Assembly (NCBI GenBank): GCA_017942005.1
Contig: JAGAVJ010000039.1
Span: 95,591-159,590, forward strand
Length of the DNA: 64,000 bases
Origin: Clostridia bacterium
GTDB lineage: Bacteria; Bacillota; Clostridia; Oscillospirales; CAG-272
Direction: 5' to 3'
In this document: positions 4,503 to 62,260 of the stretch, piece after piece
How positions within the stretch are numbered: position 1 is the stretch's first letter
Layout: every line of letters starts with the position of its first letter
The notes under the pieces: model-generated
What the model saw: the letters and a program-made list of their open reading frames with translations, nothing else
Told to the model about the DNA's origin: nothing
Database searches by the model: none
Program-made: the position numbers and the translations under genes

Positions 4503-4848
4503 GGTGTTTGAATTTTCCTTTCACAGGATATTTCATTAACATATTATAACAAATTATTTTGTCTCACAATTGAATGAAATATGAATTTAATTTGACTATC
4601 AGAAAAGTTATTTTCACTTACTTCCGCTGCTTTTGTGAATGTTGACGAAACAATGACAGCAACCCGTTTCATTGCAGCAATTTTTTGTGATTTTTGATCA
4701 TAAATATAGTAAAAAGCAAATGCGGTATCGGCAATACCGCTTGCGGCAATCGGGTCATCGCATGAACATGGCACCATATGGCTCCCGCATGCAGCAGCCA
4801 GAGAAAAATTCTGTTATCAGGTATGCTGACACGGTTTTCAAATAAGCC

Positions 4849-15691: not shown

Positions 15692-15765
15692 GGGGATTCT
15701 CCCAAAACCCCAATTCAAGGAACTTTTCGAGAAAAGTTCCTTGAAAATCTTCAAAAGCTTTTTTT
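15692..15765 (+). repeat. Family A (hairpin + mirror tract) elements, two units
   Basis: GGGGA-TTC-TCCC-AAAA-CCCC, then AAGGAACTTTTCGAGAAAAGTTCCTT-GAAAA-TCTTC-AAAAGCTT. Lies directly after the GH78-like stop codon. Confidence 0.6.
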
Positions 15766-15787
15766 CGACAAAAGGAGTTCGATTCCT

Positions 15788-17518
15788 ATGCCGTCTACTT
15801 TTATCAACAGTGTCCGTGCCATTTTCGATGCAGAGCGGATTGAAATGGCAGCAGCGATCCCCTTTTCCGCCTGCCGTGTCACCAATCCCGAAAAGCTTGC
15901 ACAGCGCGGGGTAGCAGAATCTCAAAGCGTACTTGTGTTTCTGGTTCCCTATTATGCAGGCGCCGCTTCTATGAACGGTTCGGACAGTGCCCACCGCCCA
16001 AACATCTCCAATTACGCTGCGGCGCGGGATTATCATGTCTATTTCAAAGGATTTTTTGAGCGGGTCTGCGCAAAGCTGCATGAAACGTTTCCGGAATACC
16101 GCTTTTCGGGTTCTGCCGACAACGCACCGATTGATGAACGGCATGCGGCGGTAACCGCCGGACTTGGCATGTACGGCGACAGTGGACTTTTAATCAACGA
16201 AATCTACGGTACCTACGTCTTTATCGGCGAAATTTTTTCCGATATGCCGTGGGAGCAGTATTACGACCATTGCACCACTCCGTTTGAGCCGCAGCATGCC
16301 GTCTGTATGCACTGCGGCGCATGCAAAAAGCACTGCCCGATGTATGATAATCCCTTCGGCGTCAATCGCTGTCTTTCCGAGGTTACACAGACAAAGAACC
16401 TTGAAACACTGGCAGCAGGGTCGGCTGCTTTCTCCGCCCGGGACTGTATTGATCTCATCCGCTATTACGGCTCCGCCTGGGGCTGTGACCGCTGTCAGAC
16501 CTTCTGCCCCTACAACAAGGAAGCACGCATCACGCCCATTCCGTTCTTTTTGGAAGCGCTGACGCCGCATCTGACTGCCGAACAGGTACAAACCATGCCG
16601 GATGCAGTATTTGCGGAACGTGCTTATGCATGGCGCAAAAAATCGACCATTGTGCGCAACCTGGAAATTCTGGAAGCAGATGCTGCAGCCGGTCTTCCCT
16701 GTGCTGCCGCACTGGAGGATATCCTTTCCGCCATCCGGAATGCCGGTGCTTTCATGCGCACTGCTCATGATGTGGAACAGGAAACGGGTTCCATCACAGA
16801 AAAAACGGGAGACGCCAATTTTGTCACCGTCTACGACGTCCGTGTACAGGAAATGCTGATGAAAGCGCTGCAAAACATTCTTCCGCACGCACAGTTTTTT
16901 GCCGAGGAAAAAGAAAATGATCCTGCCATGCTGTCTACCGGGGATACCTTCATCATTGATCCCATCGACGGAACCACCAATTTTATCCATAATTATGGCA
17001 TTTCCGCAATTTCGGTAGGACTTTTGCATAACGGAATTCCGGTCTTCGGCGCCGTGTACAATCCCTATCGGGAAAAGATGTACGAAGCACGGCGCGGCAT
17101 CGGGGCATTCTGCAATGGAAAAAAGATGCATGTCAGCAGCCGTCCGCCCCATAAGGGTGTATTTGCCGTCGGAACCGCTCCCTATTATCGATCCATATTG
17201 GGGGATAACACATTTGCAGTGATGCGCCGATTGTTCGATCTCGGTGCGGACATTCGCCGGCTTGGCTCTGCAGCTCTGGACCTGTGTGCCGTTGCGTCTG
17301 GAGTTGCCGACGGTTATGTGGAGCTGCGCATTTCCCCGTGGGACTTTGCCGCCGGTGCACTGCTTGTCACAGAAGCAGGCGGCGTGATTACAGATACAGA
17401 CGGAAATCCCCTGGATTTCAAACACGCCTGTCCCGTTGGCGTCATTGCCGGAACACCGTCCACACATGTAGCGCTGTTAGAAGCGGTGCATGCGGCATAC
17501 AAAAAAGGAAATATTTAA
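15788..17518 (+). CDS. Fusion protein: QueG-like (DUF1730 / 4Fe-4S) domain + inositol monophosphatase family domain
   Basis: N-terminal half: ARDYH, GLGMYGDSGLLINEIYGTYVFIGEIF, CMHCGACKKHCP. C-terminal half: FFAEEKE, IIDPIDGTTNFIH, WDFAAGALLVTEAGG. It is a single uninterrupted ORF. Confidence 0.7.
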   Translation: MPSTFINSVRAIFDAERIEMAAAIPFSACRVTNPEKLAQRGVAESQSVLVFLVPYYAGAASMNGSDSAHRPNISNYAAARDYHVYFKGFFERVCAKLHETFPEYRFSGSADNAPIDERHAAVTAGLGMYGDSGLLINEIYGTYVFIGEIFSDMPWEQYYDHCTTPFEPQHAVCMHCGACKKHCPMYDNPFGVNRCLSEVTQTKNLETLAAGSAAFSARDCIDLIRYYGSAWGCDRCQTFCPYNKEARITPIPFFLEALTPHLTAEQVQTMPDAVFAERAYAWRKKSTIVRNLEILEADAAAGLPCAAALEDILSAIRNAGAFMRTAHDVEQETGSITEKTGDANFVTVYDVRVQEMLMKALQNILPHAQFFAEEKENDPAMLSTGDTFIIDPIDGTTNFIHNYGISAISVGLLHNGIPVFGAVYNPYREKMYEARRGIGAFCNGKKMHVSSRPPHKGVFAVGTAPYYRSILGDNTFAVMRRLFDLGADIRRLGSAALDLCAVASGVADGYVELRISPWDFAAGALLVTEAGGVITDTDGNPLDFKHACPVGVIAGTPSTHVALLEAVHAAYKKGNI

Positions 17519-19736: not shown

Positions 19737-19892
19737 ATGTTCATGCGCATCAATCCGGGCGCGTTTGTCGATAATCTGTATTATATGGGTGTCGGAATGC
19801 TGTCCATTTTTATCGTCATCGGTGTCATCATCCTTGCAACCCTCATTCTCGACCGTGGAATGAAAGCGCTGGAAAAAAACAAAAAAATGTAA
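19737..19892 (+). CDS. OadG-like small membrane subunit (51 aa, below track cutoff)
   Basis: ATG lies 7 nt after AGGAGG. A single TM helix (YYMGVGMLSIFIVIGVIILATLIL) is followed by a basic tail. Position after the beta subunit is typical. Confidence 0.6.
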   Translation: MFMRINPGAFVDNLYYMGVGMLSIFIVIGVIILATLILDRGMKALEKNKKM

Positions 19893-19968
19893 GTTCGACA
19901 GATTTATGTATGGGGAAAACTTTTTTGAAAAAAAGTTTTCCCCAAACCTCTTTCAAAAAACTTTAAAC
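19890..19968 (+). repeat. Family A element (TIR-like GTAAGTTCGAC + hairpin + mirror tract)
   Basis: GGGGAAAACTTTTTTGAAAAAAAGTTTTCCCC-AAA-CCTCTTTC-AAAAAACTTTAAAC. It overlaps the stop codon of the oadG-like gene. Confidence 0.8.
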
Positions 19969-20030
19969 CGGGTAAACTGACAAAAAATTCGTGTGTTTTT
20001 GTTGGTGAAACGTTTTTGAGGAGGCGTTTC

Positions 20031-20064
20031 GGGCTGCTGCAAGTTTTCAACTTGCAGCAGCCCC
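20031..20064. terminator. Family C palindrome / bidirectional terminator
   Basis: GGGCTGCTGCAAGTTTTCAACTTGCAGCAGCCCC followed by TTTTG. Lies between convergent genes. Confidence 0.7.
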
Positions 20065-21405: not shown

Positions 21406-23017
21406 TATAAAAAATATGACAAACAAGAAAAAGAATGACGATCCGATCCACTCAAGGATGCGGAAATATGTCAACCGGCACATGAGCAATCTTTTCAAAC
21501 GCACAGTGTATATTCTCCTGTTTGCAACCATACAAATTGCTCTGCTCGTGGTAAGTTTTACCTATCTCGGAAACCTGACGCCGTATTTCTGGACATTCTG
21601 CATGCTCATTTCCTTGATTCAAGCCATGCATATTTTAAATAAAAACAACAACCCCGCCTATAAAATCGCATGGCTGATTCCCATTTTGGTCGCGCCAATC
21701 TTTGGGGGGCTATTGTATTTGATGTTCGGCTCCAAGCGTGTCAATAAACGTCTGACCACGATCACAAACGATATTCAGGAAAAATATGCGGAATTTTCTC
21801 CTTGCGTTGTCCCCTCCATTGAAAAAAAGATCGCAGAAGAAGCCCCGCGCAATGTTGCTTTGCAGTCCTCCTACATTTCAAAGGCATCCGGCTGTCTTCC
21901 CTACGGCAGCACGCAGACCAAATATTTTCCGTCCGGGGAAGAACTGTTTCCGGTCATGTATGAAGCGCTGAAACAGGCAAAACAGTATATTTTCATCGAA
22001 TATTTTATCATTGAAGAAGGACTTTTCTGGGAATCGATCCTCGATATCCTCACAGAAAAGGTAAAAGAAGGCGTGGAAGTGCGTGTCATGTACGACGACT
22101 TCGGGTCTATGCTGACGCTTCCCCTCAATTATGATAAAATGCTGCGGGAACGCGGCATCAAGTCCCATGTATTCAATCCGTTTAATACCGTACTGCATCC
22201 CCGCCCCAATAACCGTGACCACAGAAAAATTACAGTCATCGACGGAAAAACAGCTTTTGTCGGCGGTATCAATTTAGCGGACGAATACATCAATACCTTT
22301 GAAAAGTATGGATATTGGAAGGACACCGCCCTGCAAATGACCGGTGATGCTGCTTTTGGCTGTACCATACAGTTTTTGTGCGTATGGGATGCGGATACCC
22401 ATGAAAAAACGGATTTTACAAAGTATACGCCGCGCCCATCCGATAAAGAAGAACCCGCCCAGTCCACTCTTAGCATCGTACAGCCATATACCGATATTCC
22501 AATGGACAGTGAGCAGGTCGGGGAATCGGTGTATTTCCAGATGGTCACACGTGCGGAAAAGTATATTTACATCACGACCCCCTATTTGATCATCGACTAT
22601 GAAATGCAGACCGCGCTGCAAATCGCCGCAAAAAGCGGTGTGGATGTCCGCATTATCACCCCGCACATTCCCGATAAAAAAATGGTATTTTTCTTAACGC
22701 GTTCCTACTATAAACCGCTGATGGACGCAGGTGTGAAAATTTACGAATTCACCCCCGGATTTATCCATGCAAAGTCCATGGTGTCCGACGACCGCTTTGC
22801 CGTAGTCGGTTCTATCAACCTCGACTACCGTTCTCTGTATTTACACCTTGAGAATGCCGTATGGATGTACAATACGGAAGTCATTACCGACATCCGCAAC
22901 GATTTTCTTGCAACGCAGGAAAAAAGTCAGCTTGTCACAGAGGAGCTGCTCGGCCGCCTGACCCTGCCAAAACGGATGTGGCTGTCTATCCTCCGCACCT
23001 TCTCGCCGTTATTGTAG
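21395..23017 (+). CDS. cls: Cardiolipin synthase
   Basis: Two PLD HKD motifs (HRKITVIDGKTAFVGGINL and HAKSMVSDDRFAVVGSINLD) and N-terminal TM helices. Start is ambiguous (GTG 21386, ATG 21395, ATG 21416). Confidence 0.9.
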   Translation: MVITIKNMTNKKKNDDPIHSRMRKYVNRHMSNLFKRTVYILLFATIQIALLVVSFTYLGNLTPYFWTFCMLISLIQAMHILNKNNNPAYKIAWLIPILVAPIFGGLLYLMFGSKRVNKRLTTITNDIQEKYAEFSPCVVPSIEKKIAEEAPRNVALQSSYISKASGCLPYGSTQTKYFPSGEELFPVMYEALKQAKQYIFIEYFIIEEGLFWESILDILTEKVKEGVEVRVMYDDFGSMLTLPLNYDKMLRERGIKSHVFNPFNTVLHPRPNNRDHRKITVIDGKTAFVGGINLADEYINTFEKYGYWKDTALQMTGDAAFGCTIQFLCVWDADTHEKTDFTKYTPRPSDKEEPAQSTLSIVQPYTDIPMDSEQVGESVYFQMVTRAEKYIYITTPYLIIDYEMQTALQIAAKSGVDVRIITPHIPDKKMVFFLTRSYYKPLMDAGVKIYEFTPGFIHAKSMVSDDRFAVVGSINLDYRSLYLHLENAVWMYNTEVITDIRNDFLATQEKSQLVTEELLGRLTLPKRMWLSILRTFSPLL

Positions 23018-23080
23018 TTTTATGAGGAGATGCTTTTTGAAAAAAGCACCTCCTCAAACTCCTCCGCAAAAACTTTCATA
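23018..23080 (+). repeat. Family A element (GAGGAG-type arms)
   Basis: TTTATG-GAGGAGATGCTTTTTGAAAAAAGCACCTCCTC-AAA-CTCCTCC-GCAAAAACTTTCATA. Lies immediately after the cls stop codon. Confidence 0.8.
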
Positions 23081-23130
23081 TAAAGTTATTTGAATGGGGT
23101 TTCTGGCTGTACGGCGTATCCTTATTACAG

Positions 23131-23190
23131 TTACCGAAAAAAACAGGAAGGAACCGTTTTCATACGTGTTCTTCCTGTTTTTTTCGGTAA
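23131..23190. terminator. Bidirectional terminator, perfect 20-bp inverted repeat
   Basis: TTACCGAAAAAAACAGGAAG(20 nt)CTTCCTGTTTTTTTCGGTAA, between convergent cls and the AraC-family gene. Confidence 0.7.
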
Positions 23191-34554: not shown

Positions 34555-34892
34555 ATCCGTAGATTCTCCATTCTGTAAAAACAACAGAACCGGCGGAAAT
34601 TTCCCTGTACCCCTCGTACATCAAACTGTCCTGACAGGGTACCGAAAAAACTTCCGCTGATTCTAAACCATATGTATTATAGTATCATTATACCGCATTC
34701 CAGGAAAAAAAGCAAGGGCAGAATACAGAATCTCCAAAAAATTTTTATCTGCCGCACGGCTGCACTTGCTTTGTTCATACGAATATGATAAAATAATGTG
34801 AGTTCAATGAGAAAGTTTTACCAGCCAAGGCATCCATCAAAATCTTAGAAAAATAAATTGACAAAAAATAGTATAAATACGATACATTTTTC

Positions 34893-34996
34893 AGTTTAAA
34901 GTTTTTTGAAAGGGGTTTGGGGAAAAGCTTTTTTTTAAAAAAGTTTTCCCCATAAACCGCCCTCGCGTTAAAATAGGATATCACGAAATCGAAGCT
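34893..34996 (-). repeat. Family A element
   Basis: Minus strand reads TTTATG-GGGGAAAACTTTTTTAAAAAAAAGCTTTTCCCC-AAA-CCCCTTTC-AAAAAACTTTAAAC. A degenerate AGCTTCGAT end lies at 34984-34996. Confidence 0.75.
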
Positions 34997-36546: not shown

Positions 36547-37470
36547 TCAATTGACCTTTACCGGCTTTTGACATCTGTTGTGAATTTCTGCGGCGCGTCG
36601 TTCGAGTGCCTTCTTGTCGGCAAATTCGCGGTTGTCGTACTCGATCTCTCGTCCAAGCTGTTCACATTTGGAAATTCCAAGCGGATGATACGGTTCTAAA
36701 TGGACCTCTTTGATCTGGGTGTACTGTTTGGCAAGTGCTGCAATTTGATCAAAATGCGTTTGTGTATCGTTACACGACGGGATGATCGGGCAGCGCAGAA
36801 TCACGGATGCACCGTATTCTTCAAGCAGTGCAAGCGATGTTAAAATCGGCGCCTGCGGTACACCGGTCAGCGCCTCATGCGTATCCGCTTCCGCCTTATA
36901 ATCAAACAAAAACAAATCGACATATGGGATAACGGACAAAAGAACTGCACGGGATGCAAAACCGCACGTCTCCATTGCGACATGCAGTCCCGCTTCCTTT
37001 GCAGCCTGACACAGCGCCAGCGCGGCTTCTGGCTGATACAGCGGCTCTCCGCCGGAAAGCGTGATTCCGCCGCCGCTGGTTTCATAAAAAATGCGGTCGG
37101 ACAGAACCACCTGCATGATTTCATCAATCGTTGTCATGCTGCCGCACAGCTCCAGCGCTTTGGTCGGGCATACCGATGCACAGGCGCCGCACGCGGTACA
37201 GTGTTCTCTGTGCAGCAGATGTTCTGGCGCGCCTTCCGCTCCCTGCGACAGCGTATGAACCGCGTTTGGACAAACCGCGGCACAGGCGCCGCAGGAAATG
37301 CATTTTTGTTTGACATATAAAAGCTCCGGTACAGCCCGGTTGGATTCCGGATTGTGGCACCATTTGCAGCGCAGAGGACAGCCTTTAAAAAACACGGTGG
37401 TACGGATTCCGGGACCGTCGTCTACGGAGAAACGTTGAATATTGAATATATTGACTTTCATTTGATACAA
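36547..37470 (-). CDS. Glycyl-radical enzyme activating protein (PflA family, with ferredoxin-like insert)
   Basis: Radical SAM CPLRCKWCHNPES plus two extra CxxCxxCxxxCP clusters, then GGGITLSGGEP. Confidence 0.85.
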   Translation of the reverse strand: MYQMKVNIFNIQRFSVDDGPGIRTTVFFKGCPLRCKWCHNPESNRAVPELLYVKQKCISCGACAAVCPNAVHTLSQGAEGAPEHLLHREHCTACGACASVCPTKALELCGSMTTIDEIMQVVLSDRIFYETSGGGITLSGGEPLYQPEAALALCQAAKEAGLHVAMETCGFASRAVLLSVIPYVDLFLFDYKAEADTHEALTGVPQAPILTSLALLEEYGASVILRCPIIPSCNDTQTHFDQIAALAKQYTQIKEVHLEPYHPLGISKCEQLGREIEYDNREFADKKALERRAAEIHNRCQKPVKVN

Positions 37471-37781
37471 TCATTCCTTTTATGTTGAAACCTTACTCCT
37501 GCCGCACCTTGAGTAGGCACAGAAGTCTGAGACAAAAATTTGAGAGGAATTCTCTTTCTGATAGGTGCTTGCGTCGTTTTACAAAATGAGAGGTATGGTC
37601 ATTTGACAATGTCGCCCTACATGTTTTTTTATTATAGCGGAAAAAGCGAAAATTGTCAATAGATTTAAAAATTTTCATACGATATCCGGGGAAACATATT
37701 GACTTTTTGTGTGATTTATGATATTATTTATTTTAATAAAACAGCAGAAATAGAAATTGAAAGAGAGATGATTTCGTTTAT

Positions 37782-45700: not shown

Positions 45701-46119
45701 CGACTCCCTATCTGCCGTTTACCGATCTTGCAGACATTCCCGCATGGGCGCTTCCCTATATCAAAGCGGTCACAGAGGCCGGTCTGATGCGCGGCAAGAG
45801 CACAGGAGCACAGGACGCACAGGGAAATGCCATTCTGCGGTTTGCTGCTTCGGACACGATGACGCGCGCAGAAGTGCTTCAGGTACTCGGTACGCTTTTG
45901 CCGGACGGTACGACGAACGAGAACACCACGGTATCTCCCATCACATTTGCGGACAGTGCATCCATCCCCGCATGGGCGAAAATAAATATTGATCGATGTG
46001 TCGGTGCTGGTATCGTAAGCGGCTTTGAGGACAACACCATCCGTCCCAACGCAACCATCACAAGAGCAGAAATTGCCGCGCTTCTGGTTCGCACAAACAA
46101 TTCCGGTCTTTTAAAATAA
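42781..46119 (+). CDS. Cell-surface phosphodiester glycosidase (NAGPA/DUF2233-like) protein with three C-terminal SLH domains
   Basis: Signal or anchor helix. NAGPA-type LNLDGGGSTT and HPRTAVGY motifs. Ig-like middle region. Pro/Thr/Asp-rich linker. Three SLH repeats (F.D....WA......V...G...G......P....TRAE). Start is 42781 or 42793. Confidence 0.7.
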   Translation: MVLHMQMNIKRKNAVRWHRITAACLALITTIPLFSVGISAFAIADEHISYRTKETLTDGMILETLHAEKDNAAEEGYLFTFTPGKAALPIVTAGKGVWGRETATTMTNALVKDGYAVLGGVNADFFSMKTGIPMGVMMMDGVILSSDAGENAIGMKQDGSMIIGCPKINITLHKTQKTDDADKPLSPGIITGDPTEKTVDIPVNHINKYPSIWGAYLCTPDFDKTTHSTEKGTEIVFRLDEGSFVIDKSTQNPAANGNTGSSTGSSVSTETKPIKATVTEIRTDAINGAIPDDGFVIVIHNSAANANKFRDFSVGETVTFTCTAANGWEDVVFAVGGGDILVDNGAAKTEGFSAEHADKRHPRTAVGYTADGNMLVFAVDGRTGASEGMTLAELARTMRDFGCISALNLDGGGSTTVLVRERDGAFLVANNPTDGYERTISNALLFVNTAEPDGVPCFAEITPDAPIVYRDTAIPLSIAFYDKSYAQVSCPEANVTWVSDGGIIKDGVLTPSSPNPGVITVSAQVHIPMTEQKNNTAPNEAVTEKIVTVSTKVYQVDKLDSIQTAVSALEVPFGGISDPISVTGVWKGRKEKVHIHPSYLTVAFAPDDSTQNKADLHTCAYGSIDSTLSVHNTASAADPAINTLLAKSGFPQSTLTFSLTDSSTTHTTSIPVTFGAAPQIVMDMEEKDVQNRFSVPSATDTVSRLAVGGRGDSAAVAVAAPSVSLTKTPPSQTPVKRMDLYVKGTLPNVLQAVISYHGTAYTLPWTVTDDFTRLDGWKRISLDLTAIAPNGIRDFTINTLLTTQAADSTSTIEPEKFSLTIDNLVYDFGDALPVFCDIADSWAKDSILSVARMQVVGGIPMADGTYAFRPTGLLTRAEFAKMICVFAGLTVPEAPTEEELFPPTAPASQTPPDPTASAAADARANTDAADTADTQNTQASDTAGTQDGKPAVTDPGSVTSDGNTDSEKTPDTAATPYLPFTDLADIPAWALPYIKAVTEAGLMRGKSTGAQDAQGNAILRFAASDTMTRAEVLQVLGTLLPDGTTNENTTVSPITFADSASIPAWAKINIDRCVGAGIVSGFEDNTIRPNATITRAEIAALLVRTNNSGLLK

Positions 46120-46198
46120 CATGAGTTCGATGAATTTATGAGGGAAACTTTTTAAAAAAAAGATTTTCCCCAAACACCTTTCAAAAAACTTTAAACGG
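46119..46198 (+). repeat. Family A element with TIR-like ACATGAGTTCGAT end
   Basis: TTTATG-AGGGAAACTTTTTAAAAAAAAGATTTTCCCC-AAACA-CCTTTC-AAAAAACTTTAAAC. Starts in the stop codon of the SLH protein gene. Confidence 0.75.
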
Positions 46199-46225: not shown

Positions 46226-46269
46226 AAAAATCTCCGCACTGCCGGTTTCCCGGCATGCGGAGATTTTTT
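46226..46269. terminator. Bidirectional intrinsic terminator
   Basis: A5-TCTCCGCACTGCCGG-TTTC-CCGGCATGCGGAGA-T6. Confidence 0.8.
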
Positions 46270-59721: not shown

Positions 59722-61044
59722 TTATACATTTTCATTTGCACGTCCGCATTCTCTGCGGACATCTCCCGCCATATACAGTGAACCAAAACACAAAATCGGT
59801 ATGTTTCGGTCGGATGAAGTACACAGCGCCTTTTGTTTTTCCTTCAATGCTTCCAGCGCCGCACCAATACTCGGAAATGCTTCTGCTCTTATGCCATGAG
59901 AAGTAAATATTTCCGCAAGCTGCGCCCCTGCCATCGCGCGTGGTGTCGGCGGCGTAATGCAGGCGGCGAACTGGACAGTGTTTACAGCCAATACTGCCGA
60001 CAGCGCTTCTTCCGGATTCTTGTCCCGCAGCATACCACACAGATACAATAGCGGCTGTTCCTGAAAATAATACGCAATATTGTCCGCCATGGCCTGCATG
60101 CCAGACGTATTGTGCGCGCCATCCAGAATGATCATCGGATCGCGTGACAGCACCTCGAACCGTGCAGGAAACGTTGTGGAAGACAATCCGTCTTTCACCG
60201 CCTGTTCCGTCATCGGATAACCAAGCGACGGCAGAAGACGCAAGGCTTCGATTGCCGTCACCGCGTTCTGCACCTGATACAATCCGGAAAGTGCAAGGGT
60301 ATATGCTTGTCCCGCGTAGGTAAACGACAGTCGCCCCGGCTCCGCCTTTCCCTGCACAATGTCCGCACGTTTCGGTATGACAAGCTGCGATCCGGTCTCC
60401 CGACACCGTGCGGCAATCACTTCCTGTACTTCCGCCGGATTATCGGCATAGCATACACACGGTGCGCCAGCTTTGATGATGCCGCTTTTCTGCGCTGCAA
60501 TTTCTGCAAGCGTATTGCCAAGCAGCTCCGTATGATCATAGTCCACACGCACAATGACAGAGAGAAGCGGTGTGATGACATTTGTCGCATCAAAGGTGCC
60601 GCCGATGCCGACTTCCATCACAACAAGGTCGCAGGCGTGCGCTGAAAACCACAAAAGCCCCATCAGCGTCACAAGCTCAAACTCCAGCGGTGTCTCTCCT
60701 GTCTCTTGTGTGTAACGTTCCACACAAGACTTGATCTGTTCTCCAATCTCCGCTGTTTCCGCTTCGGAAATCACTTCGCCGTCAATCTCCATACGTTCTC
60801 TAAATTCCATGATAAACGGCGAAATGAAGCGTCCGACATGATACCCCTGCCGCCGCAGCGCAGAGGTCAGAAACGCACAAACCGACCCCTTGCCGTTGGT
60901 TCCGGTCACATGCAGAAACCGACCGGCAAGCTTTTTTTCGGGATTGCCAAGCATTGCAAGCAGCCGCTCCATACGGGCAAGCGTCGGCGCAGTATGAACG
61001 CGCGGCATTGAATGAAGAAAGGAAAGTGTTTCATGATATGTCAT
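59722..61044 (-). CDS. folC: Bifunctional folylpolyglutamate synthase / dihydrofolate synthase
   Basis: HVTGTNGKGS P-loop and Mur-ligase middle and C-terminal domains. Start at MTYHETLSFL. Confidence 0.9.
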   Translation of the reverse strand: MTYHETLSFLHSMPRVHTAPTLARMERLLAMLGNPEKKLAGRFLHVTGTNGKGSVCAFLTSALRRQGYHVGRFISPFIMEFRERMEIDGEVISEAETAEIGEQIKSCVERYTQETGETPLEFELVTLMGLLWFSAHACDLVVMEVGIGGTFDATNVITPLLSVIVRVDYDHTELLGNTLAEIAAQKSGIIKAGAPCVCYADNPAEVQEVIAARCRETGSQLVIPKRADIVQGKAEPGRLSFTYAGQAYTLALSGLYQVQNAVTAIEALRLLPSLGYPMTEQAVKDGLSSTTFPARFEVLSRDPMIILDGAHNTSGMQAMADNIAYYFQEQPLLYLCGMLRDKNPEEALSAVLAVNTVQFAACITPPTPRAMAGAQLAEIFTSHGIRAEAFPSIGAALEALKEKQKALCTSSDRNIPILCFGSLYMAGDVRRECGRANENV

Positions 61045-61163
61045 AGTAATGAGTCTCCTGCAAGGTCTTTTTACGACCGAAATCAATGATGTTTTCATAC
61101 AACATTATAGGGGAAAAAATACGGTTTGTCAATGGGATGAAGAAAAATTCCCACAAAAAAGAG

Positions 61164-61192
61164 GGGCTGTCGCACGATAATGCAAACAGCCC
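61164..61192. repeat. Degenerate family C palindrome
   Basis: GGGCTGTCGCACGATAATGCAAACAGCCC. Confidence 0.5.
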
Positions 61193-61222
61193 GCAAGAAA
61201 AGCCGATAAAATGATTTGTTTA

Positions 61223-61409
61223 ACGTAAGTTCGATAGAATTCTTGAGGAAAACTTTTTTTCAAAAAACTTTATATGTATAAATCAAATCAAAACGGTACG
61301 TTTTTTGCTTGATTTATCCATATTTTATTGGTTTCTCTGTTTAAAAGTTTATGCGGTGGAGTTTGAGGAGGTGCTTTTTTCAAAAAGCATCTCCTCATCG
61401 AACTCACGT
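61223..61409. mobile_element. 187-bp MITE-like element (family 1) built from inverted family A modules
   Basis: 13-bp TIRs ACGTAAGTTCGAT (61223-61235) and ATCGAACTCACGT (61397-61409), matching at 12/13. Perfect 8-bp direct repeats TTTGTTTA at 61215-61222 and 61410-61417. No ORF. Confidence 0.85.
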
Positions 61410-61414
61410 TTTGT

Positions 61415-62260
61415 TTAATGTTTTTTGGAAAGAACGATCCCGGCTGCCGCAGCCATAACAGCCGCTGCTGCAACGATACCTGCGTCTGCGGTGACAGGGG
61501 TTGTCACCGGAGCAGCAGCTTCCGGTTCAACGACCGGCGTATCTGTAACAGTAACATCTACATCTTGTGCCGGAGTCTCTGCCGGGATCTCCGGACCTGC
61601 GACAAACGCAATCCGCGGGAGCGCCCTTGTTTGTTCCCAGTATGCTTCTGAGACGTCCGTTACCTGCCAATACGAATACATATCACGTGTACCATCGCAG
61701 TCGGCATCGTCGTTAAAAGAGACATTAAAGCCGATTTCCGTTCCAATGGCAGGAGCAAAGCCCGCTGTCTGCCACGGAACAAAGATTTCAACGACATAGT
61801 AACCGTCGTACACGGCAACAGCAGTCGTCGCTTCCTCGTAAACCGTCTCATTTCCGGTATAATAGACTTCTTCACCAGTGGATGCCTTACAGTAATGCCA
61901 GTCGCCGTCTTCTGCATATTCCACATCCTCCGAATAGGTTTCCGATACCCAGAAATCAATGGAATTTCGTGCGTCAGCATCTGCTTTGGGAATGGTGGTA
62001 TCATACATGACACCGAGGAGATACAGACCTTCCTCGTCCCACATAAGGGATGCATAAGAAGCAACAATTTTATCGTTTAAAAGATCTCCACCGTATACTT
62101 CACCGTACATACGGTCTGCATTGGACCAAACCTCGTCGATTACACCGTCAATCTTGGGTTTTACGTTTGCCTTTGGCGCGGTTGCACTTGCTTCTGCTGC
62201 GACAGAAACGGTCATAGATGCTGCCGCACAGAGCGCTAAAACAAGCAGTCTTTTTTTCAT
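61415..62260 (-). CDS. Membrane-anchored surface protein with CBM9-like carbohydrate-binding domain
   Basis: Signal peptide MKKRLLVLALCAAASMTVSVAA. IDGVIDEVWSNAD and FNVSFNDD are CBM9/DOMON-like. Pro/Thr/Val linker and a C-terminal TM helix. Confidence 0.6.
   Translation of the reverse strand: MKKRLLVLALCAAASMTVSVAAEASATAPKANVKPKIDGVIDEVWSNADRMYGEVYGGDLLNDKIVASYASLMWDEEGLYLLGVMYDTTIPKADADARNSIDFWVSETYSEDVEYAEDGDWHYCKASTGEEVYYTGNETVYEEATTAVAVYDGYYVVEIFVPWQTAGFAPAIGTEIGFNVSFNDDADCDGTRDMYSYWQVTDVSEAYWEQTRALPRIAFVAGPEIPAETPAQDVDVTVTDTPVVEPEAAAPVTTPVTADAGIVAAAAVMAAAAGIVLSKKH

Follow-up and report, generated by a model that had tools for sequence, protein, structure and literature searches.

A probable 187-bp miniature inverted-repeat transposable element with hairpin modules behind a CBM9_1-domain gene of a Clostridia bacterium

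We have analysed a window of 64,000 nucleotides from a Clostridia bacterium (GTDB lineage CAG-272; contig JAGAVJ010000039.1, positions 95,591 to 159,590), in which the segment 61223-61409 is probably a non-autonomous DNA transposon of 187 bp, i.e., a miniature inverted-repeat transposable element (MITE), inserted just behind a stop codon. The segment is AT-rich and non-coding (only spurious open reading frames, ORFs, overlap it) and has several features by which MITEs are recognized, namely non-coding DNA shorter than ca. 600 bp, terminal inverted repeats (TIRs) and an abutting target-site duplication (TSD). As a transposon it is ordinary, a routine annotation. Its parts, in the order of the plus strand, are as follows.

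61215-61222, left copy of the putative TSD, TTTGTTTA, the same as 61410-61417 and abutting the left TIR
61223-61235, plus strand, left TIR, ACGTAAGTTCGAT, a 12/13 inverted match with 61397-61409
61243-61275 (about), plus strand, type-i hairpin/mirror-tail module with an internal deletion, the 5' arm TTGAGGAAAAC being fused to the tail CAAAAAACTTT
61272-61323, central AT-rich hairpin between the modules, an inverted repeat with 22-nt arms (82% complementary), present in the predicted fold
61341-61400, minus strand, complete type-ii module (covariance model 58.2 bits, E = 8e-11)
61397-61409, minus strand, right TIR, ACGTGAGTTCGAT on the minus strand and ATCGAACTCACGT on the plus
61410-61417, right copy of the putative TSD, TTTGTTTA, overlapping the CBM9 stop codon (TAA at 61415-61417, minus strand)

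Most of this anatomy had been described by an earlier reading of the letters alone (hereafter the sequence-only reading), and the observation was confirmed: the 13-bp ends, the identical octamers abutting both of them, the overlap of the right octamer with the stop codon of the CBM9-like gene, and a truncated module (with a deletion running from the 5' arm to the tail) that faces a complete one on the minus strand are all as it stated. Its interpretation as a MITE was also supported by the analysis. In shuffled sequence, an exact copy of the octamer turned up anywhere in the next 200 nt in 3.7% of cases (p = 0.037), and from this figure we estimate that a copy at the single position abutting the second end would arise by chance with a probability of roughly 2e-4. 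The left flank, which is T-rich, and the right flank are exact reverse complements of each other, matching what a TSD predicts. The end motif AYGTRAGTTCRAY occurs four times in the window against 0.02 expected, a count reached in none of 100 shuffles, and the consensus of the TIRs, read on the minus strand, is AYGTRAGTTCRAT.

Over its retained parts the left module has ca. 80% identity to the modules at 19887 and 46119, and the covariance model matches it weakly (17.5 and 12.3 bits); strain L126 has GGGGA in this module where the window has GAGGA. The hairpin of the right module (61364-61397) reads GAGGAGATGC / TTTTTGAAAAAA / GCACCTCCTC and is followed by AAAC, the mirror tail CTCCACCGC and ATAAACTTT; the fold of this hairpin has z = -5.75, and the module is 88.6% identical to the one at 23016-23085. 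Composites in other genomes have a central hairpin at the equivalent place. Taken as a whole, the 203 nt have the predicted fold of a long, imperfect palindrome (z = -9.9 for RNA, -6.4 for DNA). Rfam gave no matches at gathering thresholds over the whole window, and at permissive thresholds the two modules gave generic hairpin matches only. A BLAST search of the element against plasmid and phage collections gave no match.

A second copy of the same architecture was found in the window, between the divergently transcribed pth and HIGH_NTase genes.

34789-34795 and 34969-34975, putative TSD TAAAATA, 7/7, abutting both ends
34796-34808, plus strand, left TIR of the second copy, ATGTGAGTTCAAT
after 34808, decayed type-ii-like module followed by the centre
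34895-34955, minus strand, inverted type-i module
34956-34968, decayed right TIR of the second copy, ACCGCCCTCGCGT

In L145, a sister strain with a Pth protein of 95% identity, the decayed right end reads ATCGAACTCACGT, and the L145 counterpart (4625-4836) has intact 13-bp TIRs, ACGTGAGTTCGAT and ATGTGAGTTCGAT, at 4632-4644 and 4817-4829, with TATTTTA on both sides. The sequence-only reading had placed a degenerate end at 34984-34996, which was a mislocation of the one at 34956-34968. Both copies have one and the same order (A-rich TSD, TIR, type-ii module, centre, inverted type-i module, TIR and TSD), and in both the A-rich strand of the TSD is located 5' of the type-ii module. This second abutting repeat renders coincidence very unlikely. 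With their differing centres and decayed ends, the two copies look old. According to the sequence-only reading, a chance inverted repeat would be the likelier explanation if there were no empty-site allele anywhere and no other copy with the same TIR and TSD structure; no empty site appeared in the data that we reached, and the copy at 34789-34975 has that structure, so the MITE interpretation stands. The suggestion that these elements land at gene ends cannot be generalized, the second copy being located between two divergent genes.

The element at 61223-61409 occupies the 370-bp spacer between two minus-strand genes, the CBM9_1-domain gene and folC.

61415-62260, minus strand, CBM9_1-domain gene (Pfam PF06452), 281 aa, with the insertion at its 3' end
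61155-61192, minus strand, putative intrinsic terminator of the CBM9 gene, just outside the element, GGGCTGT...ACAGCCC followed by CTCTTTTTTG
61104-61132, minus strand, predicted folC promoter, TTGACA-17-TATAAT, 12/12 match, outside the element
59722-61044, minus strand, folC, the other flanking gene

Read on the minus strand, the element comprises a TIR, the complete module, the central AT-rich hairpin, the inverted module with its internal deletion and the second TIR. The target of a cut-and-paste insertion would have been the octamer TAAACAAA, an A-rich sequence that starts with the CBM9 stop codon, and the element would have come to lie between this codon and the terminator that belongs to the gene. 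Staggered cuts at a distance of 7-8 bp would be due to a transposase with its gene at another place, and their repair would have duplicated the octamer; the predicted empty allele is, on the minus strand, AAAAAACATTAAACAAATCATTTTATCGGCTTTTCTTGCGGGCTG. From the anatomy we infer mobility of this kind, that is, the transposition event, a transposase of the staggered-cut DDE type and any activity at the present day.

The site itself is consistent with this proposal. Deleting 61223-61417 in silico leaves a stop codon, ca. 22 nt and the intrinsic terminator, whose hairpin (-17.8 kcal/mol for the centroid to -20.6 kcal/mol for the minimum free energy) is followed by a U run. In the nearest sampled CBM9 orthologue (68% identity, with the AraC neighbour shared) the stop codon is followed by ca. 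45 nt and an ordinary terminator, with no module. The C-terminus of the protein, LSKKH*, is LSKRH* in this orthologue, and the CBM9 stop codon is therefore ancestral; the DNA of the two is not alignable. The sequence-only reading had looked to this intergenic region in related strains for an empty site with a single octamer; the 68% orthologue has no module behind its stop codon, and no clean empty site was found with the CBM9 homologues. A 42-aa ORF at 61086-61214, ending just before the left octamer, was judged to be spurious, since the folC promoter runs antisense to it. A MITE at this place would account for the 370-bp intergenic region, for the separation of the CBM9 gene from its terminator and for the repeated breaks of assemblies described below.

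Other strains and relatives were searched for these sequences. In strain L126 (folC 98% identical) the left end of the element is present, flanked as in the window. Among relatives at 68-77% identity (L127, L129, L148 and L202-L206), no module was present in ca. 65 kb, the loci not all being independent, and the modules are restricted to the lineage of the window in this comparison. Assemblies from several samples (L003, L004, L005, L007, L009, L010, L126 and L144) break inside modules, for example 32 or 57 nt past the CBM9 stop codon or 42 nt past the pth stop codon, and such breaks are the signature of a multi-copy repeat. The family also shows indel polymorphism within the species: a module pair of L145 (1859-2021) corresponds to ca. 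55 nt with fragments of the pair in the window (37470-37720), a messy indel.

A scan of metagenomes for an end of the AYGTRAGTTCRAY type together with the loop yielded clear members only in L133 and L139 and an ambiguous one in L137, most of the others being tRNA genes (L130, L131, L134, L136 and L140). The 13-nt end motif is similar to the 5' half of a tRNA T-arm plus loop (GTTCGAT; GTGAG TTCGAT), a similarity that may or may not be meaningful, and a tRNA scan of the window found none. Among viral contigs, a single one of 52 pattern matches was a true module, and the family is therefore not phage-borne.

The hairpin modules (family A of the sequence-only reading) are far more numerous than the TIR-bounded copies. 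We located them by BLAST and with a covariance model built from 55 diverse members, and the window has modules at 15710(+), 19908(+), 20006(-, weak), 23020(+), 33767(+), 33854(-), 34895(-), 46135(+) and 61341(-), that is, ca. nine in 64 kb or one per ca. 7 kb. They are multi-copy, with high identity within sub-types, and their stems vary between copies (GGGGAAAAC, GAGGAGATGC, GGGGGAC) yet remain paired. Only some carry the 13-nt end motif (19887, 34796, 46119, 61223 and 61409); those at 15710, 23020, 33767 and 33854 have no terminal repeat. Because many copies are without one, the modules are cargo or independent units and not the transposon itself. The sequence-only reading had taken family A, at least in part, for a non-autonomous mobile element; this would hold for the TIR- and TSD-bounded MITE and not for the modules as such. 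It had also recognized the same end before two solo copies, as we find at the modules at 19887 and 46119, with one mismatch at the latter.

19887-19979, plus strand, solo unit: TIR ATGTAAGTTCGAC, then type-i module 19908-19967; flanked by ACAAAAAA at 19879-19886 and 19980-19987
46119-46195, plus strand, solo unit: TIR-like ACATGAGTTCGAT right after the stop codon of a 1163-aa SLH protein; type-i module 46135-46195

The ACAAAAAA repeat around the first unit is perfect (8/8), but such a match arises anywhere in 200 nt with p = 0.03, which is weak, and no significant target duplication was detected around the other solo units by the shuffle test. A 51-aa OAD gamma-like gene has its actual stop codon inside the end motif, in the TAA at 19890-19892, and in L148 (Pth 77% identical) this gene has an ordinary terminator downstream instead of the module. 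The R in the GTRAG of the end motif preserves TAA or TGA (19887-19899, 46117-46131 and 61410-61417). Ordinary terminators, each a hairpin with a T-run, adjoin the modules (20031-20063, 23128-23180, 46228-46268 and 61155-61192), and the modules therefore do not replace terminators. When the hairpin at 20031-20063 is read on the minus strand, a family-like tail follows it (GAAAC GCCTCCTC AAAAAC GTTT). Just downstream of the module at 15710, the end-motif-like GGAGTTCGATTCC (15776-15790) is the ribosome-binding region of a gene that starts at 15788.

Outside this species, a scan of the genome collection with the module pattern gave at least 115 loci; the family figures that follow refer to the matches listed. 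True members made up 77 of 130 pattern matches (ca. 60%), and their hosts belong to at least six phyla, including Clostridia gut metagenome-assembled genomes (MAGs), Verrucomicrobia, Thermodesulfobacteriota, Nitrospirota, Planctomycetota, Proteobacteria and Desulfovibrionaceae. In each module a purine-rich 5' arm leads over a T5-G-A6 apex into a pyrimidine 3' arm; behind AAA(C) comes a tail, likewise of pyrimidines, that is the mirror image of this 3' arm, and then AAAAACTTT. The apex TTTTTGAAAAAA, the AAAC and AAAAACTTT are constant, and the stems and the tail are variable and co-vary. The normalised distance of each tail to its own stem was 0.35, against 0.557 +/- 0.017 in permutations (z = -11.9, 63 unique variants), and the tail relation was not a selection criterion for the sequences. 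Pairing of the hairpin holds in 97% of cells, and 160 changes are double-sided, a result that is partly circular given that the sequences were chosen for having a stem.

The rule that describes the tail is that it mirrors the 3' arm, being the parallel complement of the 5' arm, and models of a direct or an inverted repeat fit far worse. From arm to tail, G maps to C in 96%, A to T in 81%, T to A in 87% and C to C in 89%. Watson-Crick pairing of the tail (TTTCAAAAAACTTT with AAACTTTTTTGAAA, 13/14) was considered and rejected, as it applies to the A/T part only and fails both for the loop-variant sub-type (TTTTCGAGAAAA) and over the C-run; the mirror rule is preferred because it holds for all modules, whereas the Watson-Crick alternative does not.

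The modules are also arranged in a characteristic way. Among strong model hits (85 loci), neighbours less than 300 nt apart formed 22 tail-to-tail, 2 head-to-head and 3 tandem pairs, and the tail-to-tail pairs are located between convergent and co-directional genes alike. Examples are 19908/20006, 33767/33854 and 61243/61341 in the window and 5626/5714 in L001. The plan of the pairs is throughout module(+), central variable hairpin and module(-), to which the 187-bp element conforms. In the Thermodesulfobacteriota genome SMAG_U8218 (L014, L084 and L098) the stems differ in every copy and each tail fits its own stem, and the linkers TAGCTAT ... ATAGCYA are conserved around a G+C-rich central hairpin. 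Simple recent transposition does not readily explain such diversity with a structure that is kept.

Several observations weigh against a transposon at 61223-61409. We found no clean empty site, either among same-species contigs, all of which carry the element, or with the folC, Pth and CBM9 homologues. No transposase family is represented among the ca. 45 genes of the window, as the sequence-only reading had stated, nor did we find an autonomous element that has these ends. Although the ends and the architecture of the two composite copies are common to both, their centres align poorly. In ca. 72 kb (the window plus adjoining sequence) just two composite copies are visible, with two or three units that have one end only; the adjoining 8 kb (L001) have no further TIR-bearing copies. 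The single-ended units at 19887 and 46119 are hard to derive from classical two-ended transposition. A composite in a goat-caecum MAG (L125, 1203-1409) has the same ends, and its A-rich flanks are inverted, not direct, so there is no duplication; its two modules lie past the stop codons of two convergent genes, one behind each, and it is best read as two single-ended units.

Some of these points would suit a different explanation, namely that two independent family-A units face each other at this locus by chance, the TIRs being a leader common to both and the octamers a chance match in A/T-rich DNA. We regard this as unlikely. The leader is indeed present on the solo modules at 19887 and 46119, the two halves of the element belong to different sub-types and the nearest relative of the right half (23016, 88.6%) has no leader, and an A-rich 5' flank is found at six of nine leader-bearing ends. 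The identical tail-to-tail layout of L125 is moreover explained by two convergent genes, each with its own unit and without a TSD. However, at 61223-61409 no plus-strand gene precedes the left unit, and the exact complementarity of the flanks would require the chance event estimated above. The same pattern recurs, with TAAAATA as the repeat instead, at 34789-34975 and in L145; tail-to-tail pairs are in large excess over head-to-head pairs and are also found between co-directional genes.

It is still less probable that the segment is an immobile structured element native to the locus, e.g., a bidirectional terminator, an mRNA stabiliser or a protein-binding palindrome, which would be under selection, the direct repeats being incidental. 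The position of the modules speaks for such a role: 50 of 77 have the end of a same-strand ORF within 120 nt upstream, against 24% of random positions, the orientation bias is 33 to 10 among those with a single neighbouring gene end, and the units begin 0-50 nt past the stop codon (many across phyla 0-12 nt past it). Stems that differ and remain paired, with a tail that co-varies, likewise point to selection on structure. A Rho-independent terminator was rejected as an identity for the module, the stem being followed by AAAC and not by a U-tract, the scan finding no terminator within the element and ordinary terminators lying alongside. Against a native element there is also the absence of modules from the orthologous gene ends of relatives, as well as their multi-copy nature with high identity within sub-types; TIRs and TSDs would be unexpected in a native element. 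In any case, this explanation concerns the function of the cargo and is hence compatible with a MITE origin.

We give very little credence to a REPIN-like doublet, i.e., two inverted REP-type hairpins that a RAYT or IS200-type tyrosine (Y1) transposase would move in the form of single-stranded DNA: what is known in general of REPINs and BIMEs, extragenic pairs of inverted hairpins in many copies with variable, less conserved spacers, and here with a hairpin structure conserved while its sequence varies, does resemble our pairs, but two copies have target-site duplications and TIRs, the paired hairpins differ in sequence (one is type i, the other type ii), a conserved REP head of the GTAG type is lacking, no RAYT gene or Y1 transposase was seen in the window, and the constants of loop and tail are common across phyla, unlike the species-specific REPs. 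Y1 transposases are not known to make target-site duplications. An integron attC site was rejected as well, as the outer ends are not complementary core sites.

A MITE at 61223-61409 would have well-known counterparts. Compared by description, it is like the Correia/NEMIS elements of Neisseria, the RUP elements of Streptococcus pneumoniae and ERIC in being 100-250 bp long, non-coding and AT-rich, with TIRs, a short target duplication and a fold into an imperfect palindrome, and in its location in transcribed intergenic DNA near gene ends without a transposase nearby. Correia and RUP elements have a TA duplication. In contrast, ours has AYGTRAGTTCRAT ends and a 7-8-bp A/T-rich duplication, and its interior consists of two hairpin/mirror-tail modules and a central hairpin.

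A closer counterpart was found in the Verrucomicrobia UBA1183, a 222-bp element with at least seven copies, TIRs of 25-27 bp (TAGGGTGTGTCTACGGGAGATAAAA) and TA at both ends. No description of it was found in the literature searched. Its loci are the following.

L013, 1290-1502
L041, 1557-1790
L064, 4949-5381
L076, 1-223

Like our element it is multi-copy, has the order TIR, module(+), central hairpin(s), module(-) and TIR, and carries the constants TTTTTGAAAAAA and AAAAACTTT. Unlike ours, its TIRs are longer and unrelated, its flanks are TA instead of a 7-8-bp duplication, and its host is a member of another phylum. This clear MITE, alike in cargo but with unrelated ends, is an independent precedent for the architecture.

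The modules themselves are reminiscent of the potential intrastrand triplex (PIT) elements BoxC and TMECO of enterobacteria, in which one strand carries three blocks in a row, the two arms of a hairpin and a third block that is the mirror image of one of them (Holder et al., 2015, PMC4666352; an earlier source on PIT elements, as cited there, is Hoyne et al., 2000). TMECO is made up of G and C only, CCCTCNCCC-loop-GGGNGAGGG-N3-GGGNGAGGG with loops of 3-6 nt, and both BoxC and TMECO are intergenic and multi-copy, with copy numbers sharply different between close relatives (PMC4666352). In the nomenclature of Holder et al. (2015), our module, like these, falls into class III when one strand is read and into class I when the other is. 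Its third block mirrors the second, as in PIT elements; the homopurine/homopyrimidine stems and 1-6-nt loops of the PIT definition are not found, there being C and a T-run on the “purine” arm and a 12-nt apex. Unlike TMECO, its stems mix runs of G, A and C, the conserved T5-G-A6 apex itself pairs, and the tail continues as A5-C-T3; with such mixed stems and tail, an alternate-strand triplex, i.e., one with a strand switch, would therefore be required. A further difference from TMECO is that the modules occur in tail-to-tail pairs and, in two genomes, inside TIR-bounded elements. Judged by its sequence, the module resembles a PIT element in layout but is outside the published search definition. 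The literature that we searched for MITEs together with triplexes had no paper linking both and none with PIT elements as MITE cargo, and a search with sequence strings found nothing relevant.

With the geometry deduced from its sequence, the module could form an intramolecular triplex in which the tail is the third strand, parallel to the purine arm. Whether in a single DNA strand or in the sense transcript, the pyrimidine tail would run along that arm in parallel with C+.G-C and T.A-T triples, and over the A-run it would switch to A.A-T triples. As A.A-T triples are impossible in RNA, the A-run argues for a triplex of single-stranded DNA. We would suggest, tentatively, that the module may be a selected intramolecular triple-helix element, found across phyla and acting at the 3' ends of genes, with MITEs of unrelated ends as its vehicles; there it would, for example, block exonucleases or polymerases.

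The mirror-tail module family is a more interesting lead than the transposon itself. The same module, with conserved constants, is found in many phyla and in TIR-bounded elements of at least two unrelated lineages. If the triple helix is real, the three-way co-variation of 5' arm, 3' arm and tail over 63 variants would be comparative evidence for a natural bacterial triplex. And if the mirror relation reflects base triples, the family would supply many natural variants for tests of whether intramolecular triplexes form in bacteria and have an effect there, a question that has been open since the work on BoxC and the PIT elements.

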